Origin: Squalus acanthias
Lineage: Eukaryota
Length of the DNA: 64,000 nucleotides
Reading direction: 5' to 3'
Assembly (NCBI GenBank): GCA_030390025.1
Contig: CM059432.1
Coordinates: 22,322,001 to 22,386,000, forward strand
In this document: positions 3,892 to 49,379 of the stretch, piece by piece
How the letters are laid out: each line of letters begins with the position of its first letter
How positions within the stretch are numbered: position 1 is the stretch's first letter
The notes under the pieces: model-generated
Database searches by the model: none
Told to the model about the DNA's origin: nothing
The model's input: only the letters and a program-made list of their open reading frames with translations
Program-made: the position numbers and the translations under genes

Positions 3892-4649
3892 TCCATCTGA
3901 CCAAAAGCTTGGTCAAAGAGGTAGGTTTTAAGGAGCATCCACACTTTCATTATCCCCCGCCCCCATATAAAATAATTAACTCTAAACTGTTCACCTTTGA
4001 CCTTGAATCCATGGGGTAGATTTTTGTCTTCACCACCTTGGCGGTAATCTGGTAGAGCTGATCGCCCGTTCATTAGAGAACCTGCCTGAAATCAATGGTG
4101 ATCTGCTCTGACAAATTATCACCCAAGTCAAGATATGCCTATTGCAGTACAGTGACCCGACTGCACACAATACACCAGGTGAGGTTAACCCAATGCTCTG
4201 TATAATCTCTCATCACTTCTTGGAATCAATGCTTTATTGCTCTGAATATGTACTCCAAGATCTCATTTGCTCTTGTTACTGCTGCCGCACTCTATGCTGA
4301 TGGTACTACCAGTACCCCAAGATTCCACATCCCATAAGATTTCCATTGCTTATTCCATTTCTTAATCACTTTGTTCTGCGTTAATACTCATTAAAGATTG
4401 GCATTCATCAGCCCAATTTCCCATTTTATCTAAATTTTTCTGTATTTTGACCACTTCTTTGCAACCTACTCCCAGTTTAATTTTGTAAGATTATTATTAA
4501 TTTTGTTCACCCCTATGTTTAGAGAAATAATCTTATTACTTGATCTAACCTTGAGCGGAAACAACAACCACAGAAACTGGTATTACAAATACTAAGCACT
4601 TTATTCAACTGCTGAACAACAATAAGCAACAGCTGTAAACAATACTCAC

Positions 4650-7590: not shown

Positions 7591-7786
7591 GACACGGAGT
7601 AGAAAGAATACAAGAGAACCTGGAGCTAAAAGAGCAATCAGATGACAGTCTTTTCCTTGTATCGTGTCAAGGAATGTGATAGAGATGTTAGAAGAACCTC
7701 TCCTATATAGAAGTGTTCAAGTATGCGAGATAGTTCATTCACTGCTAATTGTGGCGTACCTTTTAAGTGAGCACAACAAAGAGTGA
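7591..7786 (+). repeat. 196-bp direct repeat, left copy (TSD-like flank of the young CR1)
   Basis: Identical by eye to 10742-10937. Confidence 0.95.
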
Positions 7787-10503
7787 TTACAGAAACATGG
7801 CTGCAGGGTGACAATGCCTGGGAATTAAACATACCAGGTTATTTAACGATCAGGAAGGACAGGAAGGAAGGAAGGGGAGGTGGGGTGGCTATGTTAATAA
7901 AGGAAGGAATCACTGTAATACAGAGTAATGATATTGGGTCAAAAAATCATGATAATGAAACAGTTTGGGTGGAGATAAGGAATAATAAGGGGAAAAAAAC
8001 ACTAGTGGGCGTAGTCTATAGGCCTCCGAACAGTTGCAACTCTGTTGGACGGAGTATCAATCAGGAAATAGTTGAGGCATGTAATAAGGGAACATCTATA
8101 ATTATGGGGGATTTTAACTATCATATTAATTGGACAAATCAAATGGGGCAGGGCTGCCTTGAGGATGAGTTCATTGAGTGTATTAGGGATGGGTTTCTTG
8201 AGCAGTATGTAACTGAACCGACCAGGGGGCAAGCAACCTTAGATCTGGTCCTGTGTAACGAGACAGGATTAATTAAAAATGTCCTAGTAAAGGATCCCCT
8301 TGGAATGAGTGACCATAACATGGTTGAATTCCATATTCAATTAGAGGGTGAGAAGGTTGGATCTCAAACAAGCGTGCTAAGCTTGAATAAAGGAGACTAT
8401 GAAGGTATGCGAGCGGAATTGAGTAGAGTGGATTGGGAAAATAGATTAAAGGGTAAGACGACACATGATCAGTGGTGTACATTCAAGGAGTTATTTTACA
8501 ACTTCCAAAAAAAATATATTCCACTGAAAAGAAAAGGGTGTAAAAGAAAGGACAGTCATCCGTGGCTAAGTAAAGAAATTAAGGATAGTATTCGACTAAA
8601 AACAAGGGCATATAAGGTAGCGAAATCTAGTGGGAGGACGGAGGATTGGGAAAACTTTAAAAGGCAGCAAAAAATAACAAAAAGATTGATTAAGAAAGGG
8701 AAGATAGATTATGAAAGTAAATTAGCAAAAAATATAAAAACAGATAGTAAGAGTTTTTATAGTTATATAAAAAGAAAAAGGGTGGCTAAAGTAAATGTTG
8801 GTCCCTTAGAGGATGAGACCGGGAAATTAATGGTGGGAAATATGGAGATGGCAAAAACACTGAATGAATATTTTGTATCAGTCTTTACAGTAGAAGACAC
8901 TAAGAATATCCCAACACTGGACAAACAGGGGGCTATAGGGGGAGAGGAGCTAAACACGATCAAAATCACTAAGGAAGTGGTACTCGGTAAAATAATGGGA
9001 CTCAAGGCGGATAAATCACCTGGACCTGATGGCTTACATCCTAGAGTCTTGAAGGAAGTGGCGGTAGGGATTGTAGATGCATTGGTAATAATTTTTCAAA
9101 ACTCCCTGGATTCCGCTAAGGTCCCGGCAGACTGGAAAACTGCTAATGTAACACCCTTATTTAAAAAGGGCAGTAGACAGAAGGCTGGTAACTATAGACC
9201 GGTTAGCCTAACATCTGTGGTAGGTAAAATTTTGGAGTCCATTATTAAGGAAACAGTAACAGGACATTTGGATAATCATAATTTAATAGGACAAAGTCAG
9301 CATGGTTTTATGAAGGGGAAGTCATGTTTGACAAATTTGCTGGAGTTCTTTGAGGAAGTAACATATAGAGTGGATAAAGGGGAACCAGTGGACGTAGTGT
9401 ATTTAGACTTCCAAAAGGCATTTGACAAGGTGCCACACAAAAGATTATTGCTTAAGGTAAAAAATCACGGGATTGGGGGTAATATTCTGGCATGGATAGA
9501 GGATTGGCTATCTAACAGAAAGCAAAGAGTTGGGATAAATGGTTCATTCTCAGACTGGCAATCAGTAACTAGTGGTGTTCCACAGGGGTCAGTGCTGGGT
9601 CCCCAACTCTTTACAATCTATATTAACGATTTGGAGGAAGGGACCAAGTGTAACATATCAAAATTTGCAGATGATACTAAGATGGGAGGGAAAGTAGTGA
9701 GTGAGGAGGACATAAAAAACCTGCAAGGGGACATAGACAGGCTAAGTAAGTGGGCAGAGATTTGGCAGATGGAATACAACACTGGAAAGTGTGAGGTGAT
9801 GCACTTTGGCAGGAAAAATCCTAGAGCAATTTATTATCTTAATGGCAAGAAACTGGAGAGTACTGAAGTGCAAAGGGATCTGGGGGTCCTGGTGCACGAA
9901 ACTCAAAAGGTTAGTATGCAGGTGCAGCAAGTGATTAAGAAGGCAAATGGAATGTTGGCTTTCATTGCTAGGGGGATAGAATATAAAAATAGGGAGGTAT
10001 TGCTTCAGTTGTACAAGGTATTGGTGAGACCGCACCTGGAATACTGCATACAGTTTTGGTGTCCTTACTTAAGGAAAGACATCCTTGCTCTCGAGGCAGT
10101 GCAAAAAAGGTTCACTCGGTTAATCCCGGGGATGAGGGGGTGGTCATATGAGGAGAGGTTGGGTAGATTGGGACTCTACTCATTGGAGTTCAGAAGAATG
10201 AGAGGCGATCTTATTGAAACATATAAGATTGTGAAGGGGTTGGATCGGGTGGATGCGGGGAGGATGTTCCCGATGACGGGTGAGACGAGAACTAGGGGAC
10301 ATAGTCTTAGAATAAGGGGCTGCTCTTTCAAAACTGAGATGAGGAGGAACTACTTCACTCAGAGGGTGGTAGGTCCATGGAATATGCTGCCACAAAAAGC
10401 TGTAGAAGCTACAACATTAATTAAATTTAAAACAGAAATAGACAGTTTCCTAGAAGTAAAGGGCATTAAGGGTTACGGGGAGCGGGCAGGAATTTGGACA
10501 TGA
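7786..10503 (+). CDS. CR1 ORF2 (APE endonuclease lacking its N-terminus, plus reverse transcriptase), no stops or frameshifts
   Basis: Motifs ITETW, YRPP, MGDFN, SDHN (EN); KSPGPDG, NYRPVSLTS, YLDFQKAFDKV, GVPQGSVLGP, FADD (RT). The GTG 'start' at 7783 is flanking DNA. Confidence 0.95.
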   Translation: MTETWLQGDNAWELNIPGYLTIRKDRKEGRGGGVAMLIKEGITVIQSNDIGSKNHDNETVWVEIRNNKGKKTLVGVVYRPPNSCNSVGRSINQEIVEACNKGTSIIMGDFNYHINWTNQMGQGCLEDEFIECIRDGFLEQYVTEPTRGQATLDLVLCNETGLIKNVLVKDPLGMSDHNMVEFHIQLEGEKVGSQTSVLSLNKGDYEGMRAELSRVDWENRLKGKTTHDQWCTFKELFYNFQKKYIPLKRKGCKRKDSHPWLSKEIKDSIRLKTRAYKVAKSSGRTEDWENFKRQQKITKRLIKKGKIDYESKLAKNIKTDSKSFYSYIKRKRVAKVNVGPLEDETGKLMVGNMEMAKTLNEYFVSVFTVEDTKNIPTLDKQGAIGGEELNTIKITKEVVLGKIMGLKADKSPGPDGLHPRVLKEVAVGIVDALVIIFQNSLDSAKVPADWKTANVTPLFKKGSRQKAGNYRPVSLTSVVGKILESIIKETVTGHLDNHNLIGQSQHGFMKGKSCLTNLLEFFEEVTYRVDKGEPVDVVYLDFQKAFDKVPHKRLLLKVKNHGIGGNILAWIEDWLSNRKQRVGINGSFSDWQSVTSGVPQGSVLGPQLFTIYINDLEEGTKCNISKFADDTKMGGKVVSEEDIKNLQGDIDRLSKWAEIWQMEYNTGKCEVMHFGRKNPRAIYYLNGKKLESTEVQRDLGVLVHETQKVSMQVQQVIKKANGMLAFIARGIEYKNREVLLQLYKVLVRPHLEYCIQFWCPYLRKDILALEAVQKRFTRLIPGMRGWSYEERLGRLGLYSLEFRRMRGDLIETYKIVKGLDRVDAGRMFPMTGETRTRGHSLRIRGCSFKTEMRRNYFTQRVVGPWNMLPQKAVEATTLIKFKTEIDSFLEVKGIKGYGERAGIWT

Positions 10504-14895: not shown

Positions 14896-16014
14896 ATGGC
14901 CGTGCCTATGGCATTCATCGGAAGCCTCGGCATGTATGACCAAGCTTGCAAACCATTCAGTTCTTATATTGAGCGGATGGAGATTTTTTTTATGGCCAAA
15001 AATATTATTGAGACTGAAGACACAGATGAGAATGTTCAAGCTCAAAATAAAGTAATTCGTGAACGAAAAAGCAATTTTTCTAATGGAGATCGGGCCAGAT
15101 CGTGCCACAGAAGTGCCAGGCAATGATTATCTCCAACAAGCAGGCGCATGGGAACACCATCACCTCCAAGTTCCCCTCCAAGTCACACACCATCCTGACT
15201 TGGAAGTATATCGTCGATCCTTCATCGTCGCTGGGTCAAAATCCTGGAACTCCCTACCTAACAGCACTGTGGGAGTACCTTCACCACATGGACTGCAGCG
15301 GTTCAAGAAGACGGCTCACCACCACCTTCTCAAGGGCAATTAGTGATGGGCAATTAATGTTGGCCTTGCCAGTGACACCCACATTCCATAAACGAATAAA
15401 AAAAAAATGTCTACAGAACATTGACAAACCTACTCGCGCCAGGGAAAGCGAAGGATGTGTTGTTTGAAGACATTGTCGAGAAACTCGAGGACCTTTTCGA
15501 CCCAGAGCCATTAGAAATAGCAGAGAGCTACAAGTTTGGTACCAGAAACAAAAAACAAAGTGAAACCATCAATGAGTACATTGTAGCTCTTAAGAACCTG
15601 TCTTTGCATTGTAACGTCGGCACATTTTTGTATCGTGCATTGCGAGATAAGTTTGTGTGTGGACTGGTGGATGAGCGCACACAGTCCAAATTACTGAACA
15701 TTCCAAAGCTAACGTTTGACATAGCATGCAAAATTGCTCTATCTATGGAGATGGCATCTAAGAATGCAAGGGAGCTCTGTCCAACTCAAGTGACTAGTGC
15801 AGCTGAGGTCTACAGTCATAAAGCCACCGGCAAACCTAAAGTTGTGAGACCAAGTCAAAAGCATGTCGGTGAGAGCAGTTCAGTGAATTGTTATTGCTGC
15901 AATGGAAATCACTCACCACAGTCCTGCCAATACAGAAATGCAAAGTGTTTTCACTGCCAGAAGCAAGGCCATATTTCAACAGCTTGCAGAGCTAGATCGA
16001 AAGCACCATTCTAG
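14896..16014 (+). pseudogene. gag: Gypsy gag (interrupted by a LINE fragment at ~15103-15407)
   Basis: YIERMEIFF...; YIVALKNLSLHC...ALRDKFVCGL; tandem knuckles CYCCNGNHSPQSC and CFHCQKQGHISTAC. Confidence 0.88.
15103..15407 (+). mobile_element. Family B (CR1/L2-group, poly(A)-tailed) LINE 3' piece with an internal deletion, inserted in gag
   Basis: Matches the tail region of 18815-19472 and 32770-33508 and ends in aataaaaaaaaa. The gag codons GPD|VYRTL resume after it. Confidence 0.8.
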
Positions 16015-16149
16015 TGGCAATGCAAAGCAGTGACAACAAAAGGGAGGCATTCACAATATTGAAGTGAACACACCTGATGTTGAAGAACTAGGCATCTGCA
16101 GTACCTATGCCACTAGCGGCAATGCTAGCAGTCATGAGAAAGACTTCCG

Positions 16150-17710
16150 TACAAAACTTTTGATCAATGACCAATATATTGATATGCGTATTGACACGGT
16201 GGTGGACTGCACTATCATGAGTAAGGACACATAGGAGAGTAAATTTAATCAAATACCACTTACAAAGAGTACCATAGAGTTAAAAACCTACTCCGGAGAA
16301 ATCCTAGAGACATGTGGACAAATGGAATGTACAGTTGAACACAATGGCCAGTCAGTAAAGCTGCCTATTATTATGGTGAGCTACAATAACAGACCAACCC
16401 TCATGAGCAAAGACTGGTTGAAAAAGTTAAAACTAGACTGGAAAAACATCTTCAGTGTAAATGCTTCAAAGAAGCAACTCGACACAATGCTGAACAAGAA
16501 CGAAAGCATGTTCTCAGACAGTTATGTGGGCATCACTGGGTATGATGTGCATATCCGCATCAAGTCCAACACGAAGCCTGTCTATTGTAAGGCAAGGCCG
16601 GTCCCCTATGCGTTGAAAAGTCAGGTGGAAGAAGAGCTAGAGAAGCTAAGAGAGAACGGCGTACTAGTAAAAACTGACAAAAGTGAATGGGCTACCCCGA
16701 TTGTGGTAGTGCCCAAAGCAGACAAAACTGTACGCTTGTGTGGTGACTACAAAGTTACTATCAACCAAACAGTCGACGATGAGCAGTCCCCGTTACCTAC
16801 ATCACAGGATTTGTATGCAGCCCTCTCTGGGTCAAAGGTTTTCTCCAAGCTTGACCTGTCACATGCTTACGCTCAGCTGAATGTTGACAAAGAGAGTCAA
16901 CAGTATCTCACTATCAACACACACAAGGGACTGTACTCATACACCAAGTTGCCGTATGGTGTAAAGTCCTCCCCAAAATGGATAAGATTTTGCAAGGAGT
17001 TCCAAATTGCTTATGCAATCAAGACGATATGCTGATCGCAACAAGCAGCGAGGAAGAAAATCTAGAAGAGTTAGATGTAATGCTTCATTCCCACAATGTC
17101 AAATGGGAGCTGTCATAAGCCACGTAATGGATGACGGCCAAGAGAAATCAATCGCGTTTGCATCGTGAACCCTCACAAAGAGCGAAAGAAACTACGTGCA
17201 AATTGAAAAGGAAGCACTCACCATAGTGTTTGGAATAAAGAACTTCCAACAGTTCCTAATCGGCAGAAAGTTTACCCTGATAACCAATCACAAACCACTC
17301 CTAGCAATATTGGGGCCCAAATCTGCCATCCCTACAATGGCCGTATCAAGAATGCAACGTTGGGCAGTGTTGTTGTCACAATATGACTACACGATTGAAT
17401 ATCGCACTTCAAAGCAAAAAGCAATCACTGATGCCTTGTCCAGGTTGCCACATGAGGACTCGTGTGTTGGGAGTGAAGGTGAGATTTCACACTAGGTGCA
17501 GTTGACAAAGACTTTCCCATGAATGCAACTGAGATTGCAGATGAGACTCAAAAGGACTCGGTACTGAAAAGAGTGGATGAAAACACCTTGAGTGGATGGA
17601 CTGATCAGTGTCTGGACACAGAGTTGAAACCATTCCATAACCGTCGTACTGAATTGTCTTGTGAGCAAGGTTGTATCAGGGGAAACAGAGTGGTGGTGCC
17701 TACTTCTTTG
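16150..17710 (+). pseudogene. pol: Gypsy pol remnants (protease, partial RT, RNase H; integrase mostly deleted)
   Basis: IDT protease-like site at ~16190; SEWATPIVVVPK, RLCGDYK, FSKLDLSHAY, LPYGVKSSP; EKEALTIVFG...TNHKPLL...RMQRWA...DALSRLP. Stops and frameshifts are present. Confidence 0.9.
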
Positions 17711-23625: not shown

Positions 23626-24770
23626 AAAAGAAAAAAGAAAGACTTGCATTTATATTCTTAGACAGTCTTCTTCTTAGGCAGTCCCTCGGAACCGAGGATG
23701 ACTTGCTTCCAAACTAGAAATGAGTTCTCAGGTGACTAATGAGTCCAATGCGGGACCTACAGTCTCTGTCACAGGTGGGGCAGACGGTGGTTGAAGGGGC
23801 GGGTGGGTGAGGTGCTTGGGTTGATGTGCACTCCTTCCGCTGTTTGCGCTTGGCTTCCGCTTGCTCCCGGCGAAGAGACTCGAGGTTTTCGGTGCCTTCC
23901 CGAATGCTTCTCCTCCACTTTGTGCGGTCTTGGGCCAGTGGTCTTGGCAAATGGAATTTAACCCAGGTGTCGGTGGGGATGTTGCACTTTTTCAAGGAGG
24001 CTTTGAGGGTGTCCTTGAAGTATTTCCTCTGCCCACCTGGGGCTCTCTTGCCATGTCGTAGCTCCGAGTAGAACGCTTGTTTTGGGAGTCTCGTATCGGG
24101 CATGCGGATGATGTAGCCCGTCCATCGGAGCTGATCGAGCGTGGTCAAAGCTTCGATGCTGGGGATGTTGGCCTGAGCGAGAACACTGACGTTGGTGCGC
24201 ATAACCTGCCAATGGATTTGCAGGATCTTACGGAGGCAGCATTGGTGGTACCTCTCCAGTGCTTTGAGGTGCCTGCTGTACATGGTCCATGTCTCTGAAG
24301 CATACAGGAGGGCGGGTATCACTACTGCTCTGTAGACCATGAGCTTGGTGCTGGGTTTGAGGTCCTGGTCTTCAAACACTCTCTTCCTCAGGCGACCGAA
24401 GGCTGCATTGGCACACTGAAGGCGGTGTTGGATTTCGTCATCGACGTCTGCCCTTGTTAACAGTAGGCTCCCGAGGTATGGAAAGTGGTCCACGTTGTCC
24501 AAGGCCTGGTCATGGATTTTGATAATCGGGGAGCAGTACTGTATGGCGGGGGCAGGTTGGTAGAGGACCTTTGTCTTATGGATGTTTAGTGTAAGGCCCA
24601 TGCTCTCGTACGCTTCAGTGAAGGTGTTGACGATGGCTTGGAGTTCGACCTCAGAGTATGCGCAGACGCAAGCATCGTCTGCATACTGTAATTCGATGAC
24701 CTCAGGATGTCCCAAAGCGCTTTACAGCCAATGAAGTACATTTGAAGTGTCGTCAGAGTTGTAATGTCGA
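23626..24770 (-). mobile_element. DeuSINE 3' tail split by an RTE insertion
   Basis: aaagaaagacttgcatttatat (to ~23655) and ctcaggatgtcccaaagcgctttacagccaatgaagtac (from 24701) are the reverse complement of the tail of 766-1233. Confidence 0.7.
23666..24700 (-). mobile_element. 5'-truncated RTE LINE (RT C-terminus plus C2H2 finger)
   Basis: ELQYADD...FPYLGS...QLRWTG...CPTCDRDCRSRIGLISHLRTH and an (aag)n tail. Confidence 0.93.
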
Positions 24771-37376: not shown

Positions 37377-37475
37377 TGTGTTCTTGTGTTGCATAATGAT
37401 CTATTGGAACATTTTGTTAAAGTTTAGGAATAGATGTTGCTATGAGAGTGTGCTATGTCCTGCTCATTGTATAAA

Positions 37476-37651
37476 TGATGTGGAGATGCCGGTGTTGGAC
37501 TGGGGTGGACAAATGTGAGAAGTCAAACAACACCAGGTTATAGTCCAACAGCTTTGTTTGAAATCACAAGCTTTCGGAGCGCTGCTCCTTCGTCAGGTGA
37601 AGTGATTTCAAAGCTGTTGGACTATAACCTGGTGTTGTGCGACTTCTCACA
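37476..37651. mobile_element. Short hairpin-shaped PLE-type non-autonomous insertion
   Basis: TSD attgtataaa(tg) at 37466 and 37652, an internal inverted repeat, and the same left end as 47001-47214. Confidence 0.88.
37564..37600 (-). ncRNA. Minimal type I hammerhead ribozyme motif
   Basis: Minus strand reads tcac-CTGACGA-a-ggagc(agc)gctcc-GAAA-gc-TT-gtga: conserved core, 5-bp helix II, helix I tcac/gtga, palindromic AGCT helix III. Confidence 0.8.
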
Positions 37652-38251
37652 ATTGTATAAATGCCGTATCATATTGTGAGCCTTGGGATTTATCCAATGC
37701 CTTACTGATTCAAAATTTTAAGAGAAAAATATTACCATTTAATGATGCTTGATATGTAAGTACTGAGTAACGGGGATGCCATAGTTGCTTGAGGTGAGTC
37801 AGTCGCCACGTCTGGTTGGGCCATTACTGTGTGCAGATGTTGTAGGTATTATTCTGTAGCGCACCCTGCAACCTGAATAGGCAATGAGTTCACTCTGCTC
37901 CGTTACTGGAAATCAGTTATAGAATGATGTGGGAGTTTGGGATGCTTTACTGGGAAATCTGAAGTACTGAGTTTGAATGTATAATCACGTAAATTAATTT
38001 TTCCACTAGTGTCAAATATAAAGGATAACAACCATCTGATAATTCATGACACAAGCCACAACCTATTGTCCTTTTTTATGCAAACTCTAATCCATGCTTC
38101 GTGATGTTGGCAGACCATAATCCCAATTTGATTGTGCCAAACCAGTTGGTTCAGGAATGGAAAGAATGGATTGAGGTACCACACATTTCTTCTGAAAGAG
38201 GAATAGATACAGTGTCTATGCAATAATTACTGCTTCACTTAGTTGCATTAC

Positions 38252-38471: not shown

Positions 38472-40993
38472 TAACTGCTTATTTCCATCTATGTAGCACT
38501 GGCTACCTGTTCCCTTACATCACCCCACTTACACTAAAACCCTCTAGCCACACTTTTATTGGGTCTCTACCTCCATCTGACACAAGCTTCAACTTGTCTA
38601 AAATCACCTCCGTCCTGTCCCGCACTAAGTTCCGCTTGCCTATTATCCCCATTCTCATCAACCGCCATTGCTCCCTGGCTCCCAGTACACTAAATTGACC
38701 ATGAATTCGGTATTCTTGTCTTCATTTATAAATCCTTTCTTGGCTTCAGTGCACCTTGCCAGCTCTATTTTCCATCCTATTCTCTATGGTTCTTTGGCTC
38801 TGAGCCCTCTCCTGCATCCCATTTAGATGGCAGAGTTTCTGCAATATCTTTCCTAAATGACCTTGTCTGTTACTTTTCTGCCTACCTTTATAGGCATCTT
38901 CCAAATCTATCTTTTTGACCATGCATTTGGTTATCTCTCATTGTATAATCTTCTTGTTTATAAAACAGTGTATTATCAGTATGTGCAATTCCATGGAGGA
39001 TCTGCTAACAGCTTTTTAAAAAAATAGAACAAAAAGTACTCAGACTTTGTTTCTCCTTTAATGGTTTTTCTGTAAATTATATATCTGCATTTTCTATTAC
39101 TTTCTAGGCAATGTTCCACTTATTGCAAGACATCTGGCATAACGTAGGGGTCCACATACAGCAAAATCTATGCCAAAGTAGCTTGTGACACCACATTAGA
39201 TTAATGTCTGGTAGAGGTAGAGGAATAGAACTGTTTCTTCCATTAATTGATAACCGTGTTAAAAATTCAGATGCTCAGTGAAACAGCTTTTTAAATCAGC
39301 TTTTCCTTGCTTCTAATTAAATTCACACAACTAATGAAGATCTCGATCCAGATACAAAAAAAAATCTGAGGCATGACTGATGATTGGAAAACTCACGGGC
39401 TGCAGTCAAATAATTACTGGCAAAAGGTTTGCAATGAGCCTGCAAGAGAAATATGCAGTGATGTTGCTTAAATGAGCTCTGGGACATACATTACTGATAC
39501 ACCAGATCTGGCAGAGTTGCGACATCTTGTGATTTCTCTCCTGATAGCCTGTCTGTTCTACGTTTAAACATCTGCTTGATATGTTCTCATTAAGTTCTTA
39601 AAAAGCTTCAGGAATCTCCAAATAGTCTTGAGGGCAAAGTGTTCTGTGAAAGGCCTGATTATTTGAGGACACCAATTGTCTCTGCCTTTTAGTATCATGA
39701 TTACTTTATTCTTAAGGAATGATGACTTTTGCACAGTAGCACAGATGGGCTTTTCTCTTTACAAATTGTGGGCTTCTTATGTTTTTAATATTTATGGCTG
39801 TATGAATATCATATCAAAGTCCATGTGAGATCAGGGCATTGCTAATTTGTCACCTATAGATAAAGATGTAGTTTAAAAATGACTTTCAACAGTGTCCGGT
39901 CATGAAAGGTTAACATATTCATGCAACATTTCTGCATCCACTAGTTTAACCAACTCACTGGACCATTTATTAAAATGGGTTAAAGCCTCAGGTAAAATTG
40001 CAGAGGAACTCAAATGAACACGTTAAGCTTTTATCACCGAAAGCACTTTCTAGCCATATATTCTTATGGGCATGACAAAGGCACTGCATATGTTGTAGAT
40101 GAAGATTGTTTTTCAGAAACTGCCCTTTGATTACAATGTTTAGCATAGTCCATTCTGCACTGAATCTTCAGCAATATCAGTCAATCTTCATTCTAACACT
40201 TCAAGGCAGATTTTCCAAGATTTGTGCCTCTTCTGCCTAAATGTTGGGCACAGCTGACTTTGCCAGTTCTTCTGGGTTAAGCCTACTTTGATAAACGTGG
40301 TGAGCTCCTAGTCTGAATATGGCCTCTTCTTATGAGTTCACAAAGGCAGGCACAGAATGTCTGGCACTGCTACAAATCTTAAGGGGCTGCAGCATGCATT
40401 TAAAAACATTTGGCAGCTTAAAAGTAGATGGCTGTACGTGCAGAGGAATAAGAATCTTGGCTGTCGAGGCTGTTTTGTCGTGAAGAATTTTTCTTGGCTT
40501 TCAAAGGGGTGTGTTGGGTAAAAGTAAAGGATGGCAAATCCAGTGGACGGCATCACAAATACGAAGGCAGGAAGCAGATTCCGTGGGCATGTGATGCAGG
40601 AGTACAGAGCCTGAATCCACTGGGCAATGCAGCAAAGTACTGAAATTGTTCAGGTCCCATTGCCATTCATTGGAAAAGTGACGAAAGTTTTGGTCATGCA
40701 TTATTCACTTGTTTGATATTTATATGGGCAACACATTGACTGATATTGCAGATAATCCCTATGCCAGCCTGGAAGGAACCAAAGTCAGAAAGGTTGAGAG
40801 CAGTGGCACCTTGATTGCAAGCTACAAGTCTATATGTTGCAAGTTTGCTGCAGATGCTAAAGCTCTGTAAATGTTTCCCTGTTGACCCAGAAACTGAAGA
40901 GGCAGGTATCCTCAGTCATTGCAAAGTTGCTGTGCTGAAGTCTACAGATATGGTTGGTGGCATAATGGCAGATGTAACAGACTCAGTCTGGAG

Positions 40994-41459
40994 TCTGTGA
41001 TCTCCCTGCTATCTGTGATCTCCCTGGTGCCTCTGCTGTCTTGGTGCCTGTGATCTCCCTGGTGCCTGTGATCTCCCTGGTGCCTCTGCTGTCTTGGTGC
41101 CTGTGATCTCCCTGGTGCCTGTGATCTCCCTGGTGCCTGTGATCTCCCTGGTGCCTCTGCTGTCTTGGTGCCTGTGATCTCCCTGGTGTCTGTGATCTCC
41201 CTGGTGCCTGTGATCTCCCTGGTGTCTGTGATCTCCTGTTGCCTGTGATCTCCCTGGTGTCTGTGATCTCCCTGGTGTCTGTGATCTCCCTGGTGTCTGT
41301 GATCTCCCTGGTGTCTGTGATCTCCTGTTGCCTGTGATCTCCCTGGTGTCTGTGATCTCCCTGGTGTCTGTGATCTCCCTGGTGTCTGTGATCTCCCTGG
41401 TGTCTGTGATCTCCCTGGTGTCTGTGATCTCCCTGGTGCCTCTGCTTTCTTGGTGTCTG
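40994..41459. repeat. Minisatellite with ~18-bp unit CTGTGATCTCCCTGGTG(T/C); continues, more diverged, at 49187-49325
   Basis: Directly visible tandem array with variant units (cctctgctgtcttggtg, ctgtgatctcctgttgc). Confidence 0.95.
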
Positions 41460-43281: not shown

Positions 43282-46200
43282 GGGCGTCTCAGAGACTCTC
43301 ATGACTCTTCGGCTCACCCTAGCCTGGAACCAGTGCGCTACAGTCATCAGTGCGTATGCCCCACTGGAAGCCACAGACGAGACCAAAGAGGAATTCTACT
43401 CCAGCCTCGAACAATCTCTGTCCCGAGTCCCAATGGGCGACAAGCTGATCTTCCTTGGCAACTTTAATGCCAGAATTGGAAAGGACACAGACCTCTGGGG
43501 AGGTGTGATCGGCAGAGAGGGGGGAAGTGAAAGCATCCTCCTGTCGAAATGCTCAGAACATGGCCTTGTCATAACCAACACCTTGTTCCATCAGAGAGAC
43601 AAGTACAAGGCTTCATGACAGCACCCTCGCTCCAAGCACTGGCATCTGCTGGACTGCGTCATCGTCCGAGCGAGGGACCACAAGGACGTCCGCATCACCC
43701 GCGCCATGACAGGAGCTGACGACTGCTGGACATCTCCATCAATATAGCCCCTAAACAGCGGCAGCAACAGAAAAAATGCCACAGGAAAATCAACGCTGGA
43801 GCACTCAAAGACCCCTGCTAAGAAAGCCCTATTCAGCCTGCGCCTCACAAACAACCTGATGACTCCCACTGATGCAGAGACACAGAGTGTCCACAGCACC
43901 TGGTCGGCGCTCAAGGCCTCCATAATCAGCACCTGTGAAGAGAGGCTTGGTCACTCGACCAGGAAACACCAAGACTGGTTCGACGAAAATGACTAGGAGA
44001 TTCAGGAGCTAATAAGCCGCAAGCGCAAGGCATTCCTGATCTGGAAACAGCAACACAACTCGAGAGCAAGAAAGCAGCTCTACAGACGCCTGAAGGCTGA
44101 GGTCCAACAAAAAACTTGCGACCTAAAGAACAGATGGTGGGTGGAGAAAGCGTAGGAGATCCAGCAGCTAGCCGACAACCACGACGTGCGTGGATTCTTT
44201 AGTGCAGTTAAGACCACCTACAGCCCAAGCACCCAAGGTCCTACCCCACTGCGGGCCAAGAACGGAGAGGTACTCATCAAGGACAGAGAGGGAGTCATTG
44301 CCCGCTGGAAGGAGCACTTCGAAGATCTCCTTAACTGAGACTCTGTCTTTGACGCGAGTGTCCTCAACTCCATCCCGCAGCATGCTACCCGCCACCATCT
44401 CAGCACAACCCCAGCCCGGCATGAGGTTGAAAAGGCCATCCGACAACTGAAGAACAACAAGGCCTCAGGAGCAGATGGAATCCCCGCCGAGGCATTAAAG
44501 CATGGCAGAGAAGCACTACCGGCACGAATTCATGAACTCATTTCTCTTATCTGGAAGGAGGAGAGCATGCCAGGGGACCTCAGAGATGCCGTAATTGTGA
44601 CCATCTTCAAGAAAGGTGACAAGTCTGATTGCGGTAATTACAGAAGAGTTTCCCTACTGTCTGCCACAGGGAAAGTCATTGCAAGAATCCTCCTCAATTG
44701 CCTTCTCCCAGTGGCCAAAGAGCTCCTCCCAGAGTCGCAATGCGGATTCCGCCCACTAAGGGGCACAATGGACATGATCTTCACCGCGTGTCAATTACAA
44801 GAAAAATGCAGCGAACAGCACCAACTGCTGTACATGGCCTTCTTTGATCTCACAAAGACCTTCAACACTGTCAACCGTGAGGGATTATGGAGTGTCCACT
44901 CAAAAGTTTGACGCCTGCTTCACGATGACATGCAAGCCGTGATCCTGACCAATGGTTCCACCACAGACCCAATTCATGTACGGACCGGGGTCAAGCAAGA
45001 CTGTGTCATCGCACTAACGTTCTTCTCGATCTTCCTTGCTGCAATGCTCCATCTCACCCTCAATAAGCTCCCCGCTGGAGTGGAGCTAATCTACAGAACA
45101 AACGGGAAACTCTTCAACCTCCGTCGCCTCCAGTCCAGATCCAAGGTCGTCCTATCCTCTGTCGTGGAATTACAGTATGCAAACGATGCTTGCGTCTGCG
45201 CTCACTTGGAGGTCGAACTGCAAACCATCGTCAACACCGTCACTGAAGCATACGAGAGCTTGGGCCTTACACTAAACATCCGTAAGACAAAACATCCGTA
45301 ACAACCTGCCCCCACCACATCGTACTGCCCCCCAATGATCAAAATCCACGACAAGGCCTTGGACAACGTGGACCACTTTCCATACCGCGGGAGCCTACTG
45401 TCAACAAGGGCAGACTTCGATGACGAAGTCCAACACCGCCTTCAGTGTGCCAGTGCAGCCTTCGGTCGCCTGAGGAGGAAAGTGTTTGAAGACCAGGACC
45501 TCAAACCCGGCACTAAGCTCATGGTCTACAGAGCAGCAGTGATACCCGCCCGCTGTATGCCTCAGAGACATGGACCAGGTACAGCAGGCACCTCAAAGCA
45601 CTGGAGAGGTACCACCAACGCTGCCTCCGCAAGATCCTGCAAATCCATTGGCAGGATAGGCACACCTACGTCAGTGTTCTCACTCAGGCCAACAACCCCA
45701 CCATCGAAGCTTTGACCACACTCGATCAGCTCCGATGGACGGGTCACATCGTCCGCAAGCCCGATACGAGACTCCCAAAACAAGAGCTCTACTCGGAGCT
45801 CCGACATGGCAAGAGAGCCCCAGGTGGGCAGAGGAAACACTTCAAGGACACCCTCAAAGCCTCCTTGAAAACGTACAACATCCCCACTGACACCTGGGAA
45901 TCCCTTGCCCAAGACTGCACAAAGTGGAGGAGAAGCATAGAACATAGAACATGGAACAGTACAGCACAGTACAGGCCCTTCAGCCCTCGATGTTGTGCCG
46001 AGCATTGTCCGAAAACAAGATCAAGCTATCCCACTCCCTATCATTCTGGTGTGCTCTATGTGCTTATCCAATAACCGCTTGAAAGTTCCTAAAGTGTCCG
46101 ACTCCACTATCACAGCAGGCAGTCCATTCCACACCCCAACCACTCTCTGAGTAAAGAATCTACCTCGGACATCCCTTCTATATCTCCCCCCATGCACCTT

Positions 46201-47000
46201 ATAGTTATGCCCCCTTGTAACAGCTACCTCCGCCCGAGGAAATAATCTCTGAACATCCACTCTATCTATCCCCCTCATCATCTTATAAACCTCTATTAAG
46301 TCGCCTCTCATCCTCCTCCGCTCTAAAGAGAAAAGCCCTAACTCCCTCAATCTTTCCTCATAAGACCTCCCCCCCAAACCAGGCAGCATCCTGGTAAATC
46401 TCCTTTGCACTCTTTCCAATGCTTCCACGTCCTTCCTATAGTGAGGTGACCAGAACTGCACACAATATTCCAAATGTGGTCTCACCAAGGTCCTGTACAG
46501 TTGTAGCATAACCTCACGGTTCTTAAACTCAAACCCCTTGTTAATAATTGCTAACATACTATAGGCCTTCTTTACTGCTCTATCCACTTGAGTGGCAACC
46601 TTCAGAGATCTGTGGATATGAACCCCCAGATCCCTCTGTTCCTCCACGTTCCTCAGAACCCTGCCGTTGACCCTGTAATCCTTATTCAAATTTGCCCTAC
46701 CAAAATGAATCACCTCGCACTTATCAGGGTTAAATTCCATCTGCCATTTTTCGGCCCAGCTCTGCATCCTATCAATGTCTCTTTGCAGCTTACAACAGCC
46801 CTCCACCTCATCCACTACTCCACCAATCTTGGTGTCATCAGCAAATTTACTGATCCACCCTTCAGTCCCCTCCTCCAAGTCATTGATAAAAATCACAAAC
46901 AGCAGAGGACCCAGCACCGACCCCTGTGGCACACCGCTGGTAACTGGTCTCCAGTCCGAAAATTTTCCATCCACCACCACCCTCTGCCTTCTATGAGATA

Positions 47001-47214
47001 TGATGCGGAGATGCCGGTGTTGGACTGGGGTGGACAAAATTGAGAGGTCGCACAACACCAGGTTATAGTCCAACAGTTTTATTTGAAATCACAAGCTTTC
47101 GGAGCTATCGCTCCTTCCTCAGGTGAAGTCTCACCTGAGGAAGGAGCGATAGCTCCGAAAGCTTGTGATTTCAAATAAAACTGTTGGACTATAACCTGGT
47201 GTTGTGCGACCTCT
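47001..47214. mobile_element. PLE-type non-autonomous insertion with a perfect 84-bp inverted repeat
   Basis: Arms 47043-47126 and 47131-47214 with loop agtc. TSD (tct)atgagata at 46990-47000 and 47212-47222. Splits the CR1 codons WLSHR|RQR. Confidence 0.93.
47131..47168 (+). ncRNA. Minimal hammerhead ribozyme motif (mirror copy on the minus strand at 47089-47126)
   Basis: tcac-CTGAGGA-a-ggagc(gata)gctcc-GAAA-gc-TT-gtga; predicted cleavage after CUU at 47164. Confidence 0.8.
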
Positions 47215-49379
47215 ATGAGATAGCCAGTTACTTATCCAATCGGCCAAATTTCCCTCTATCCCACAACTCCTTACTTTCTTCATGAGACGACCATGGGGAA
47301 CCTTATCAAACGCCTTACTAAAATCCATGTATACGACATCAACTGCTCTACCTTCATCTACACACTTAGTTACCTCCTCAAAGAATTCAATCAAATTTGT
47401 TAGGCAAGACTTACCCTTCACGAATCCGTGTTGACTATCCCTGATTAAGTTGCCTCTTTCCAAATGGTCATAAATCCTATCCCTCAGGACCTTTTCCATT
47501 ATCTTACCAACCACCGAAGTAAGACTAGCCGGCCTATAATTACCAGGGTGATTCCTATTTCCTTTCTTGAAGAGAGGAACAACATTCGCCACTCTCCAGT
47601 CCTCTGGCACCATCCCCGTGGACAGTGAGGACCCAAAGATCAAAGCCAAAGGCTCTGCAATCTCCTCCCTTGCCTCCCAAAGAATCCTAGGATATATCCC
47701 ATCTGGCCCAGGGGACTTATCAACCCTCAGGTTCTTCAAAATTGCTAAAACATCTTCCCTCAGAACATCTACCTCCTCCAGCCTATCCACCTTTATCACA
47801 CTCTCATCCTCAAAAACATGGCCCCTCTCCTCGGTGAACACTGACGAAAAGTATTCATTCATCACCTCTCCTATCTCTTCTGACTCCATGCACAAGTTCC
47901 CACTACTGTCCTTGACCGGCCCTACCCTCACCCTGGTCATTCTTTTATTTCTCACATAAGAGTAAAAAGCCTTGGGGTTTTTCTTGATCCGACCCGCCAA
48001 GGACTTCTCATGCCCCCTCCTAGCTCTCCTAAGCTCTTTTTTTTAGCTCATTCCCTGCTACCTTGTACCCCTCAATCGACCCAACTGAACCTTGTTTTCT
48101 CATCCTTACATACGCTTCTTTTTTCCTCTTGACTAGACATTCAACCTCTTTTGTGAACCATGGTTCTCTCACTCGGCCATTTCCTCCCTGCCTGACAGGG
48201 ACATACCTATCAAGGACACGCAGTAATTGCTCCATGAAAAAGCTCCACTTTTCGTTTGTGCCTTTCCCTGATAGTTTCTGTTCCCATCTTATGCTCCCTA
48301 ATTCTTGCCTAATCGCATCATAATTACCCCTCCCCCAATTATAAACCCTGCCCTGCCGTATGGCCCTATCCCTCTCCATTGCAATAGTGAAAGTCACCGA
48401 ATTGTGGTCGCTATCTCCAAAGTGCTCTCCCACATACAAATCAAACACTTGGCCTGGTTCATTACCCAGTACCAAATCCAATGTGGCCCCACCTCTTGTC
48501 GGCCTATCCACATATTGTGTCAGGAAACCCTCCTGCACACACTGTGCAAAAACTATCCCATCCGAACTGTTTGACCTATAAAGGTTCCAATCAATATTTG
48601 GAAAGTTGAAGTCACCCATGACAACTACTCTGTGACCTCCACACCTATTCATAATCTGCTTTGCAATTTCCTCCTCCACATCTCTATTACTATTTGGGGG
48701 CCTGTAGAAAACTCCTAACAACGTGACCGCTCCTTTCCTATTTCTAACTTCAGCCCATATTACCTCAGACGGCAGATCCCCCTCGAACTGCCTTTCTGCC
48801 GCTGTTAAACTATCCTTGATTAACAATGCTACTCCTCCACCTTTCTTACCACCTTCCCTACTCTTACTGAAACATCTATACCCCGGAACTTCCAACAACC
48901 ATTCCTGTCCCTGTTCTAACCATGTCTCCGTAATGGCCACCACATCTGGGAAGGCGCCGAACACCTCGAGTCTCTTCATCGGGAGCAAGCGGAAGCCAAG
49001 CGCAAGCAGCGCAAGGAGCGCACGTCAACCCAAACACCCCACCCACCCGCCCCTTCAACCACCGTCTGACCCACCTGTGACAGAGACTGTTGGTCCCGCA
49101 TTGGACTCATCAGTCACCTGATAACTCATTTTTAATGTGGAAGCAAGTCATTTTCGGTTCCGAGGGACTGCCTAAGAAGAAGAAGATGGTGTCTGTGATC
49201 TCCTGGTGCCTGTGATCTCCCTGGTGTCTCTGATTTCCTGGTGCCTATGATCTCTTGGTGCCTATGATCCCCGGGTGCCTGTAATCTCCTGATTCGTGTG
49301 ATGTCCTGGTGCCTATGATTCCTCTGGCATGCTTTCTTTCATCTGTATCACTTCAACCATGAAATTTTGTATTTGACAA

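Follow-up and report, generated by a model that had tools for sequence, protein, structure and literature searches.

A 214-base hairpin in the Squalus acanthias genome as a short Penelope-like insertion, and a two-strand priming model for its inverted repeat

What is the small palindromic insertion that interrupts a LINE in the genome of Squalus acanthias, and how did its two arms come to face each other? The window, meaning the whole stretch of 64,000 nucleotides analyzed here (assembly GCA_030390025.1, contig CM059432.1, positions 22,322,001 to 22,386,000), holds at positions 47001-47214 a 214-base insertion that the original prediction, made from the letters alone, had read as a retrozyme-like, non-autonomous element with back-to-back hammerhead ribozymes. 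We therefore asked whether the hairpin is a ribozyme family of its own or a by-product of a larger element.

Within the insertion, two arms of 84 nt (47043-47126 and 47131-47214) are 100% complementary across a gap of 4 nt, a perfect inverted repeat of 84+84 bp with a predicted fold of -173.8 kcal/mol (z = -27 against 200 shuffles). A direct repeat of 11 bp (46990-47000 and 47212-47222) brackets it, and the final 3 bases of this repeat overlap the inverted arm, which explains the duplication range of 8-11 bp given at the outset. Pfam RVT_1 halves flank the insert, Exo_endo_phos lies upstream, and leaving out the 222 inserted bases gives a host frame that is open for 599 codons, so that the hairpin insertion is the recent event. 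From its motifs we take the host LINE to be of CR1 type. An insertion with a perfect inverted repeat and a target-site duplication inside a LINE ORF2 was thus borne out, and the proposed extent of the hairpin was correct for 47043-47214, the inverted repeat, while 47001-47042 lies outside it as the 'tail' of a Penelope-like element (PLE). In element numbering, where +1 is the A of the ACTTCAC that precedes the hammerhead, the minus strand of the window reads +4..+87 inverted, then one extra G, then +1..+129. The forward arm spans the predicted transcription start (+1 being an inferred start) to the A of the ATG of the element's ORF, and the outer end of the inverted arm falls within the +86 to +103 cluster formed by 52 sister copies. 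The features are as follows.

46021-48042, minus strand: host LINE ORF2, split in its RT domain (RVT_1 on both sides; frame open without the insert).
46984-46988, minus strand: right half of the dyad target, GGCAG (CA at +3,+4).
46989-47000, minus strand: target-site duplication, tail side, 12 bp of the original site (repeat search; insertions at homologous LINE sites).
47001-47129, minus strand: forward arm, element +1 to +129 (matches locus L061 at 4453-4581).
47001-47042, minus strand: PLE 'tail', 42 bases of the forward arm beyond the reach of the inverted arm (sister-copy comparison).
47089-47126, minus strand: minimal type I hammerhead motif, predicted cut between 47093 and 47092 (sequence).
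47130, minus strand: extra G at forward-arm position 0, untemplated by the element (position 0 is T in sister copies).
47131-47214, plus strand: inverted arm, a second copy of element +4 to +87, head-to-head with the forward arm (84 nt, 100% complementary).
47131-47168, plus strand: minimal type I hammerhead motif, predicted cut after 47164 (sequence, with helices I and II laid out; architecture as in the available text of PMC4209133).
47212-47222, minus strand: target-site duplication, inverted-arm side (11 bp, 3 bases common to the arm).
47223-47227, minus strand: left half of the dyad target, CTGGC (TG at -4,-3).
37466-37663, unstranded: second hairpin insertion, more diverged and from a related PLE subfamily, flanked by a 12-bp duplication of its own (37466-37477 and 37652-37663).

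The inverted arm of the second hairpin begins near +38. Elsewhere in the window lie an APE/RT LINE ORF2 with 910 open codons (7771-10500, plus strand), presumably a young CR1-type copy by its motifs; a broken-up LTR retrotransposon-like element seen as zinc-knuckle and RT fragments (15400-17032, plus strand); RT fragments from a different LINE family (44339-46071, plus strand, and 23717-24721, minus strand), which we take from its motifs to be RTE-like and of which one bears a zinc finger at its C terminus; and tandem repeats of one 17-18-bp unit (40988-41459 and 49187-49323), the latter sitting just upstream of the ORF2 of the host LINE.

A search of the 3.7-Gb genome for an autonomous PLE with the terminus of the hairpin found one. 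There were 386 exact matches to the tail of longer copies, some 3138 bp apart, which place the parent element elsewhere in the genome as 3138-bp units in tandem. Its ORF encodes 892 amino acids with RT and GIY-YIG domains and is open; among 13 ORF starts in six fetched stretches, five gave the full 892 amino acids, three ran off the stretch, and five met an early stop. The protein matches RVT_1 and, at the cut-off, GIY-YIG; a CX4CxxC linker and two Cys between the GIY- and YIG-like motifs can be read in it. Its nearest named relatives are uncharacterised shark proteins (82-92% identity), and a sequence search found no solved structure related to it at E <= 0.01. The element carries TATATAT at -32, an initiator-like sequence at +1, the hammerhead from +4 to +41 with a predicted cut at +37/+38, and the ATG at +129. 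Counting copies genome-wide gave 6266 exact matches to +28..+114 and 8022 to +58..+114, and the family is also present in contigs of four runs (contigs, none on record as RNA). The very young age and the mobilisation by a PLE RT/GIY-YIG protein that had been proposed are both supported.

By the linker definition in the available text of PMC8557442, the sequence would make the parent an EN+ PLE of Neptune or Nematis type. The features of an EN+ PLE are present, namely a single ORF with RT and C-terminal GIY-YIG, tandem units (pseudo-LTRs) in arrays of 3138-bp period, an inverted 5' copy with a tail at one end, and a minimal hammerhead in the terminal repeat; so are the marks of the Neptune clade, a CX2-5CxxC linker before GIY-YIG and a CCHH motif inside it. 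The family may already have a Repbase or Dfam entry. At locus L063 (G000 C1:223.72 Mb), a near-full-length inverted unit stands head-to-head with a tandem of open units, which is the architecture of the hairpin at kilobase scale.

To characterize the copies, we took the first 100 matches on contig C1 in order, with 28 loci cut by the edge of the retrieved DNA. Forward arms start anywhere from +24 to beyond -1400, a continuum of lengths up to more than 1.4 kb, and the hairpin sequence is the autonomous element's own end, which speaks against the non-autonomous family originally proposed. The top 40 matches to the 214-mer, near-full-length throughout at 94-100% identity, look like a fixed unit because they are ranked by likeness to the query. 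Across 106 distinct hairpin-bearing loci we counted 89 different inner sequences, with no twin of the window copy among them, and in each of 9 groups that share an inner sequence the members diverge at their outer or tail ends. Whether an inverted arm is 50 or 600 bases long, it ends at +86..+103. The hammerhead variant is identical between the arms in 34 of 40 copies (chance 0.14), and in the remaining six the arms differ by one base in five copies and by two subfamily sites in one. Inner and outer ends that vary from copy to copy, together with matched arm variants, indicate that the hairpin is rebuilt at each insertion. With lengths forming a continuum and junctions and ends varying, the copies share no fixed unit distinct from the autonomous element, and the 214-base hairpin is among the shortest copies of an abundant, young PLE and no separate ribozyme family. 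Two unrelated hairpin copies (L202 and L206; G000 C3:121.0 Mb and C1:151.46 Mb) have the same foreign sequence inserted at the same base, at element position about +60.

The ends of the arms follow a simple rule. In 96 of the 100 C1 copies the forward arm stops within +121..+140. An inverted segment is present in 69, of which 52 end at +86..+103 and 3 at other positions, with 14 cut by the DNA edge; no fewer than 17 of the 100 lack an inverted arm within the retrieved DNA, from which we conclude that a one-arm insertion route also exists. The distance from tail end to outer end is 28-48 bases (median 40, 50 copies). Because the C1 sample required a tail, we selected 35 hairpins from the first 50 of 167 located by the centre junction alone. 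Here 29 have one short and one tailed arm, one has two short arms, none has two tails, and five have an interrupted arm, so that 29 out of 30 scorable hairpins combine a short arm, ending near +92, with a tailed arm, ending near +131 (p = 6e-8 if each arm were chosen independently).

Target sites proved equally regular. Duplications were found in 50 of 52 copies (12 bp in 23, 13 bp in 13, 14 bp in 9, other lengths in 5), and they overlap the element by means of 1.6 and 2.2 bases, where about 0.3-0.4 would be expected by our own estimate, which points to 3' overhangs that pair with the RNA. Around the 12-bp duplication lies a dyad, TG-NN on the left (TG at -4,-3) and NN-CA on the right (CA at +3,+4). 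Both TG and CA are present at 15/20 and 10/14 distinct 12-bp sites in two locus sets (25/34 in total; repeated target sites removed within each set, one site recurring between sets), against a background of 0.5% per position, and G stands at -3 in 65 of 68 half-sites. When any duplication length is allowed, the dyad fits 31/38 and 27/35. A third set gave 9/14 against a background of 1.5%, with 6 of 20 loci yielding no measurable duplication; given the 5/14 misses in this set, the motif is a preference and no strict site. The window's own insertion site fits it, and at least four further insertions (L009, L068, L160 and L209) struck the homologous LINE site, with the same 12-bp duplication in the first three. 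A LINE-family hot spot was also seen, with 9 of 50 sampled duplications coming from one site in both orientations, as a symmetric cut would give; copies there include L080, L084, L097, L106, L127, L129, L131, L133 and L144.

We read the hairpin, with a probability of roughly 0.8, as a short 5'-truncated PLE insertion in which a predicted dimer cuts a symmetric target 12 bases apart and primes on both strands. The process starts from an element with an open RT/GIY-YIG frame and thousands of near-identical ends. The dyad pattern TG-NN, 12 bp, NN-CA is seen in the genomic targets, and the element's own enzyme would be what selects it. To judge from the overlaps of 1-4 bases at the inner ends of the duplication, the 3' overhangs would pair briefly with the RNA and, in keeping with the two observed start positions, would prime near +131 and +92, most likely on the same RNA molecule; the tail would be the gap between the two priming sites. 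Both cDNAs may then extend toward the 5' end of the RNA and join 3' to 3', often via 1-5 shared bases, and fill-in of the joined cDNAs would give the head-to-head repeat. A weaker last step would set the length: a template that starts at +1 would leave about 130 bases, hence a hairpin of about 215-225 bp, and longer or full copies would need a read-through transcript of the tandem.

Structure prediction of a homodimer of residues 1-480 scored 0.37 against 0.05 for the best of 3 controls, with pLDDT of at least 63, runs that agree in at least 30% of contacts, and an interface at residues 42-80, a helix. This mark is reached by 21/30 solved homodimers and 0/23 single chains (17/29 and 0/30 for eukaryotes), and the model supports but does not show dimerisation of the PLE protein. 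We slightly favor a more specific form, in which the element is a sequence-preferring dimeric retro-integrase whose two GIY-YIG domains read the dyad halves (TG-N16-CA) and whose two RTs prime about 40 bases apart on one RNA. If true, one geometry would account, across Penelope-like elements, for the one-sided tail and the inverted pseudo-LTR as well as for the requirement of tandem templates. Some observations temper the model: PMC11167929 sees no difference between top and bottom strands in start sites and an AT-rich (ATT) preference, so the rule may not be general, with the caveat that one target in vitro could not reveal whether sites are paired within an individual insertion; and locus L095 has arms from different subfamilies (two linked differences), which implies two RNA templates or later recombination and counts against priming on a single template.

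The alternative that survives best accepts priming on both strands and departs from the model at +1, where it takes the pile-up of ends to come from cDNA annealing at a self-complementary stretch and the extra G or C to be random addition. We regard it as the less probable version, though a serious one. The pile-up is strong in a mixed sample, where 31 of 93 copies have 5' ends in -2..+11 (2.4% per base against 0.2-0.8% elsewhere), but modest genome-wide in the window's subfamily, where 73/348 ends lie near +1 against 36/275 in the next 14 bases (p = 0.011), an excess of only 1.6-fold that speaks for annealing. Positions +2..+16 are indeed partly self-complementary, and 24 of 52 centre junctions overlap by 1-5 bases. 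On the other side stand TATATAT at -32 and the initiator-like sequence at +1, the blunt +1/+1 joins in 15 of the first 50 centre junctions, and the one-base centre junctions, 10 of 14 of which carry G or C in place of the template's T (60 of 61 copies running past -5 have T at position 0). The pile-up, the TATA-like box, the blunt joins and the extra G or C suggest that the first 130 bases of a capped transcript are copied, and the extra G at 47130 is possibly a copied 5' cap; this capped-transcript origin of the short length is weaker than the remaining steps.

Priming on both strands fares better against a single cDNA, primed at the tail and then folding back on itself to make the inverted arm. 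Fold-back accounts for the identical arm variants in 34/40 copies and for short palindromes at some centres. Against it stand 17 of 52 inverted arms that exceed the forward arm on the 5' side by more than 10 bases and so hold sequence absent from it; 12 of these are clear (up to 270 bases) and five are borderline through a parsing offset, and the clear cases would stand unless the forward arm was trimmed afterwards. The inner ends of the two arms correlate (rho 0.72, n = 52). Fold-back also explains neither the fixed stop near +92 nor the dyad target, and we judge it improbable.

Still less probable is the published ascription of the head-to-head repeat to self-priming on an antisense transcript, followed by insertion (PMC3846280, in its available text). 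The head-to-head orientation and the junction palindromes suit it, and TATATAT can be read both ways, but it predicts neither the overlaps of 1-4 element bases at both ends of the duplication, nor the one-short-one-tailed rule, nor ends at the two sites that bound the tail, as priming on sense RNA gives in vitro (PMC11167929). A non-autonomous hairpin family, with transcripts that the PLE protein would copy whole in trans, is largely refuted: the uniform best 40 matches and the centre sequences shared by several copies are what it would produce, but the former reflect ranking by query likeness, an unselected sample gives a length continuum, inner sequences are nearly as many as loci with the shared groups varying at outer and tail ends, and short and long inverted arms alike stop in the same place.

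The hammerhead itself is real as a motif. Each strand carries one copy of UCAC-CUGAGGA-A-GGAGC(GAUA)GCUCC-GAAA-GC-UU-GUGA, a match to the architecture in the available text of PMC4209133, so the minimal type I assignment of PLE kind stands and the predicted cleavage after 47164 was placed correctly. The 'back-to-back' description held insofar as each arm has one motif; they lie on opposite strands, so that a single transcript holds only one. The core C-Y-G-A-N-G-A is kept in all 91 of 100 sampled copies that span it, with the 3' half of the hammerhead imposed by the search pattern and hence no conservation test of that half, and helix II variants among copies retain Watson-Crick or G-U pairing. 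U4 is changed to C in 3/91 copies of the C1 sample and in 6/23 extra copies; carriers are L167-L169, L181, L183 and L188, and L080, L087 and L119. The spread of this subfamily hints that an intact core is perhaps dispensable for mobility.

In the native context of +1..+140, helix II is predicted to form with p about 1.0, and helix I to form in part, with p about 0.5. Forcing the hammerhead helices inside the hairpin costs 60 kcal/mol, with a helix II probability of about 1e-16, and in the window copy the hammerhead is thus a passenger, predicted to be unable to fold. The proposed switch between self-cleaving and double-stranded states fails for the same reason, and also because the antisense arm is transcribed first from either strand and only one sense core is present. 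Searching Rfam returned no hammerhead match among 20 matches at E <= 10, with only sub-threshold microRNA-type hairpin hits, which the long duplex explains.

We also considered a footprint of hammerhead cleavage at copy ends, since 4 of 23 extra copies begin at +36..+39, next to the predicted cut. Genome-wide exact counts for starts at +30, +34, +38 and +42 are 6384, 6541, 6678 and 6837 (steps of 157, 137 and 159); they rise evenly with no step at the cut (+38), so the footprint was rejected, as was cleaved RNA as a major template. A master locus carrying hammerheads in close tandem was likewise rejected, the full element having promoter-like sequence and no second ribozyme upstream of +1. The ribozyme reading adds little beyond published work: minimal hammerheads in PLE repeats, opposite-strand pairs included, are in print (available text of PMC4209133), which removes the novelty claimed for the ribozyme.

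More broadly, the inverted pseudo-LTR, tail, duplication, TATA/initiator and hammerhead are all already described in the accessible portions of PMC3846280 and PMC8557442, the latter calling the origin of the tandem and inverted PLE structures undefined. In the full-text literature available to the search we found neither a PLE dyad target consensus nor a two-strand account of the inverted repeat, and the available part of PMC12910113 held nothing on Penelope target sites. The dyad site and the rule of one start per strand would be the new part; architecture and ribozyme are known. The two-strand model offers an account, open to testing, of how the PLE inverted repeat and 'tail' arise, with sharp predictions of site, stagger, and two start positions, one per strand, and the family offers thousands of nearly unmutated insertions and open frames to express, which opens the insertion question to direct tests. 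A small RT-endonuclease that favors a dyad and primes inside its RNA would also be of interest for gene writing. In annotation, hairpins of this kind score as precursors of microRNAs or as pairs of ribozymes, and we advise masking them as PLE ends. The window hairpin is an ordinary product of a known class, and the family is an unusually clean record of PLE insertion.

How does this compare with known systems? In L1 twin priming, both target strands prime cDNA and a 5' inversion results; the inverted part of an L1 copy comes from upstream of its forward part and repeats none of it, whereas the inverted arm of the hairpin duplicates the forward arm and begins at a fixed site. Inverted repeats of Penelope are reportedly mentioned in a Xenopus genome paper as siRNA-like hairpins. 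Animal non-LTR retrozymes, as far as the available texts of PMC7229834 and bioRxiv 2026.07.22.740005 describe them, resemble the hairpin in being small, non-coding, PLE-related and equipped with a type I hammerhead. They are head-to-tail tandems with at least two sense ribozymes, whereas the hairpin is a single head-to-head pair with one ribozyme per strand that is not copied as a unit; no tandem repeat was found at the hairpin site, with one sense core per strand, and the label 'retrozyme-like' therefore does not apply.

The hammerheads of metazoan PLEs in the available text of PMC4209133 share with ours the CUGANGA/GAAA core, an unpaired base between 9 and 10.1, the G10.1-C11.1 pair, palindromic 15.2-16.2, a short helix I and a fast-changing helix II. 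They too occur as opposite-strand pairs, 100-700 bp apart, whereas the window's two motifs lie about 45 bp apart inside a perfect duplex, with CUU as the cut site. The Neptune clade (Arkhipova 2006, as given in the available text of PMC8557442) matches in its single ORF with RT, CX2-5CxxC linker and C-terminal GIY-YIG, and in tandem units, 5' truncation, an inverted 5' copy, a one-sided tail of 30-40 bp and a terminal-repeat hammerhead. Targets differ: Neptune and Naiad use microsatellites such as (TA)n (same text), and the shark family uses the dyad TG-N16-CA with a 12-bp duplication.

The closest experimental counterpart is PAc, the Poseidon element of Anolis carolinensis and the one PLE to have been reconstituted in vitro (PMC11167929). 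There, both strands are cut and extended, two internal RT start sites bound the tail, a dimer is predicted through an N-terminal helix, and insertion proceeds without need of hammerhead cleavage and with no RNA ends at the cut, all in likeness to the shark element. PAc is without the Cys linker as a clade mark, prefers ATT and starts 111-118 bases into the ORF, with no strand assignment of start sites and no link to the inverted repeat reported (PMC11167929); the shark element, in contrast, starts at the ATG and about 40 bases before it, one site per strand.
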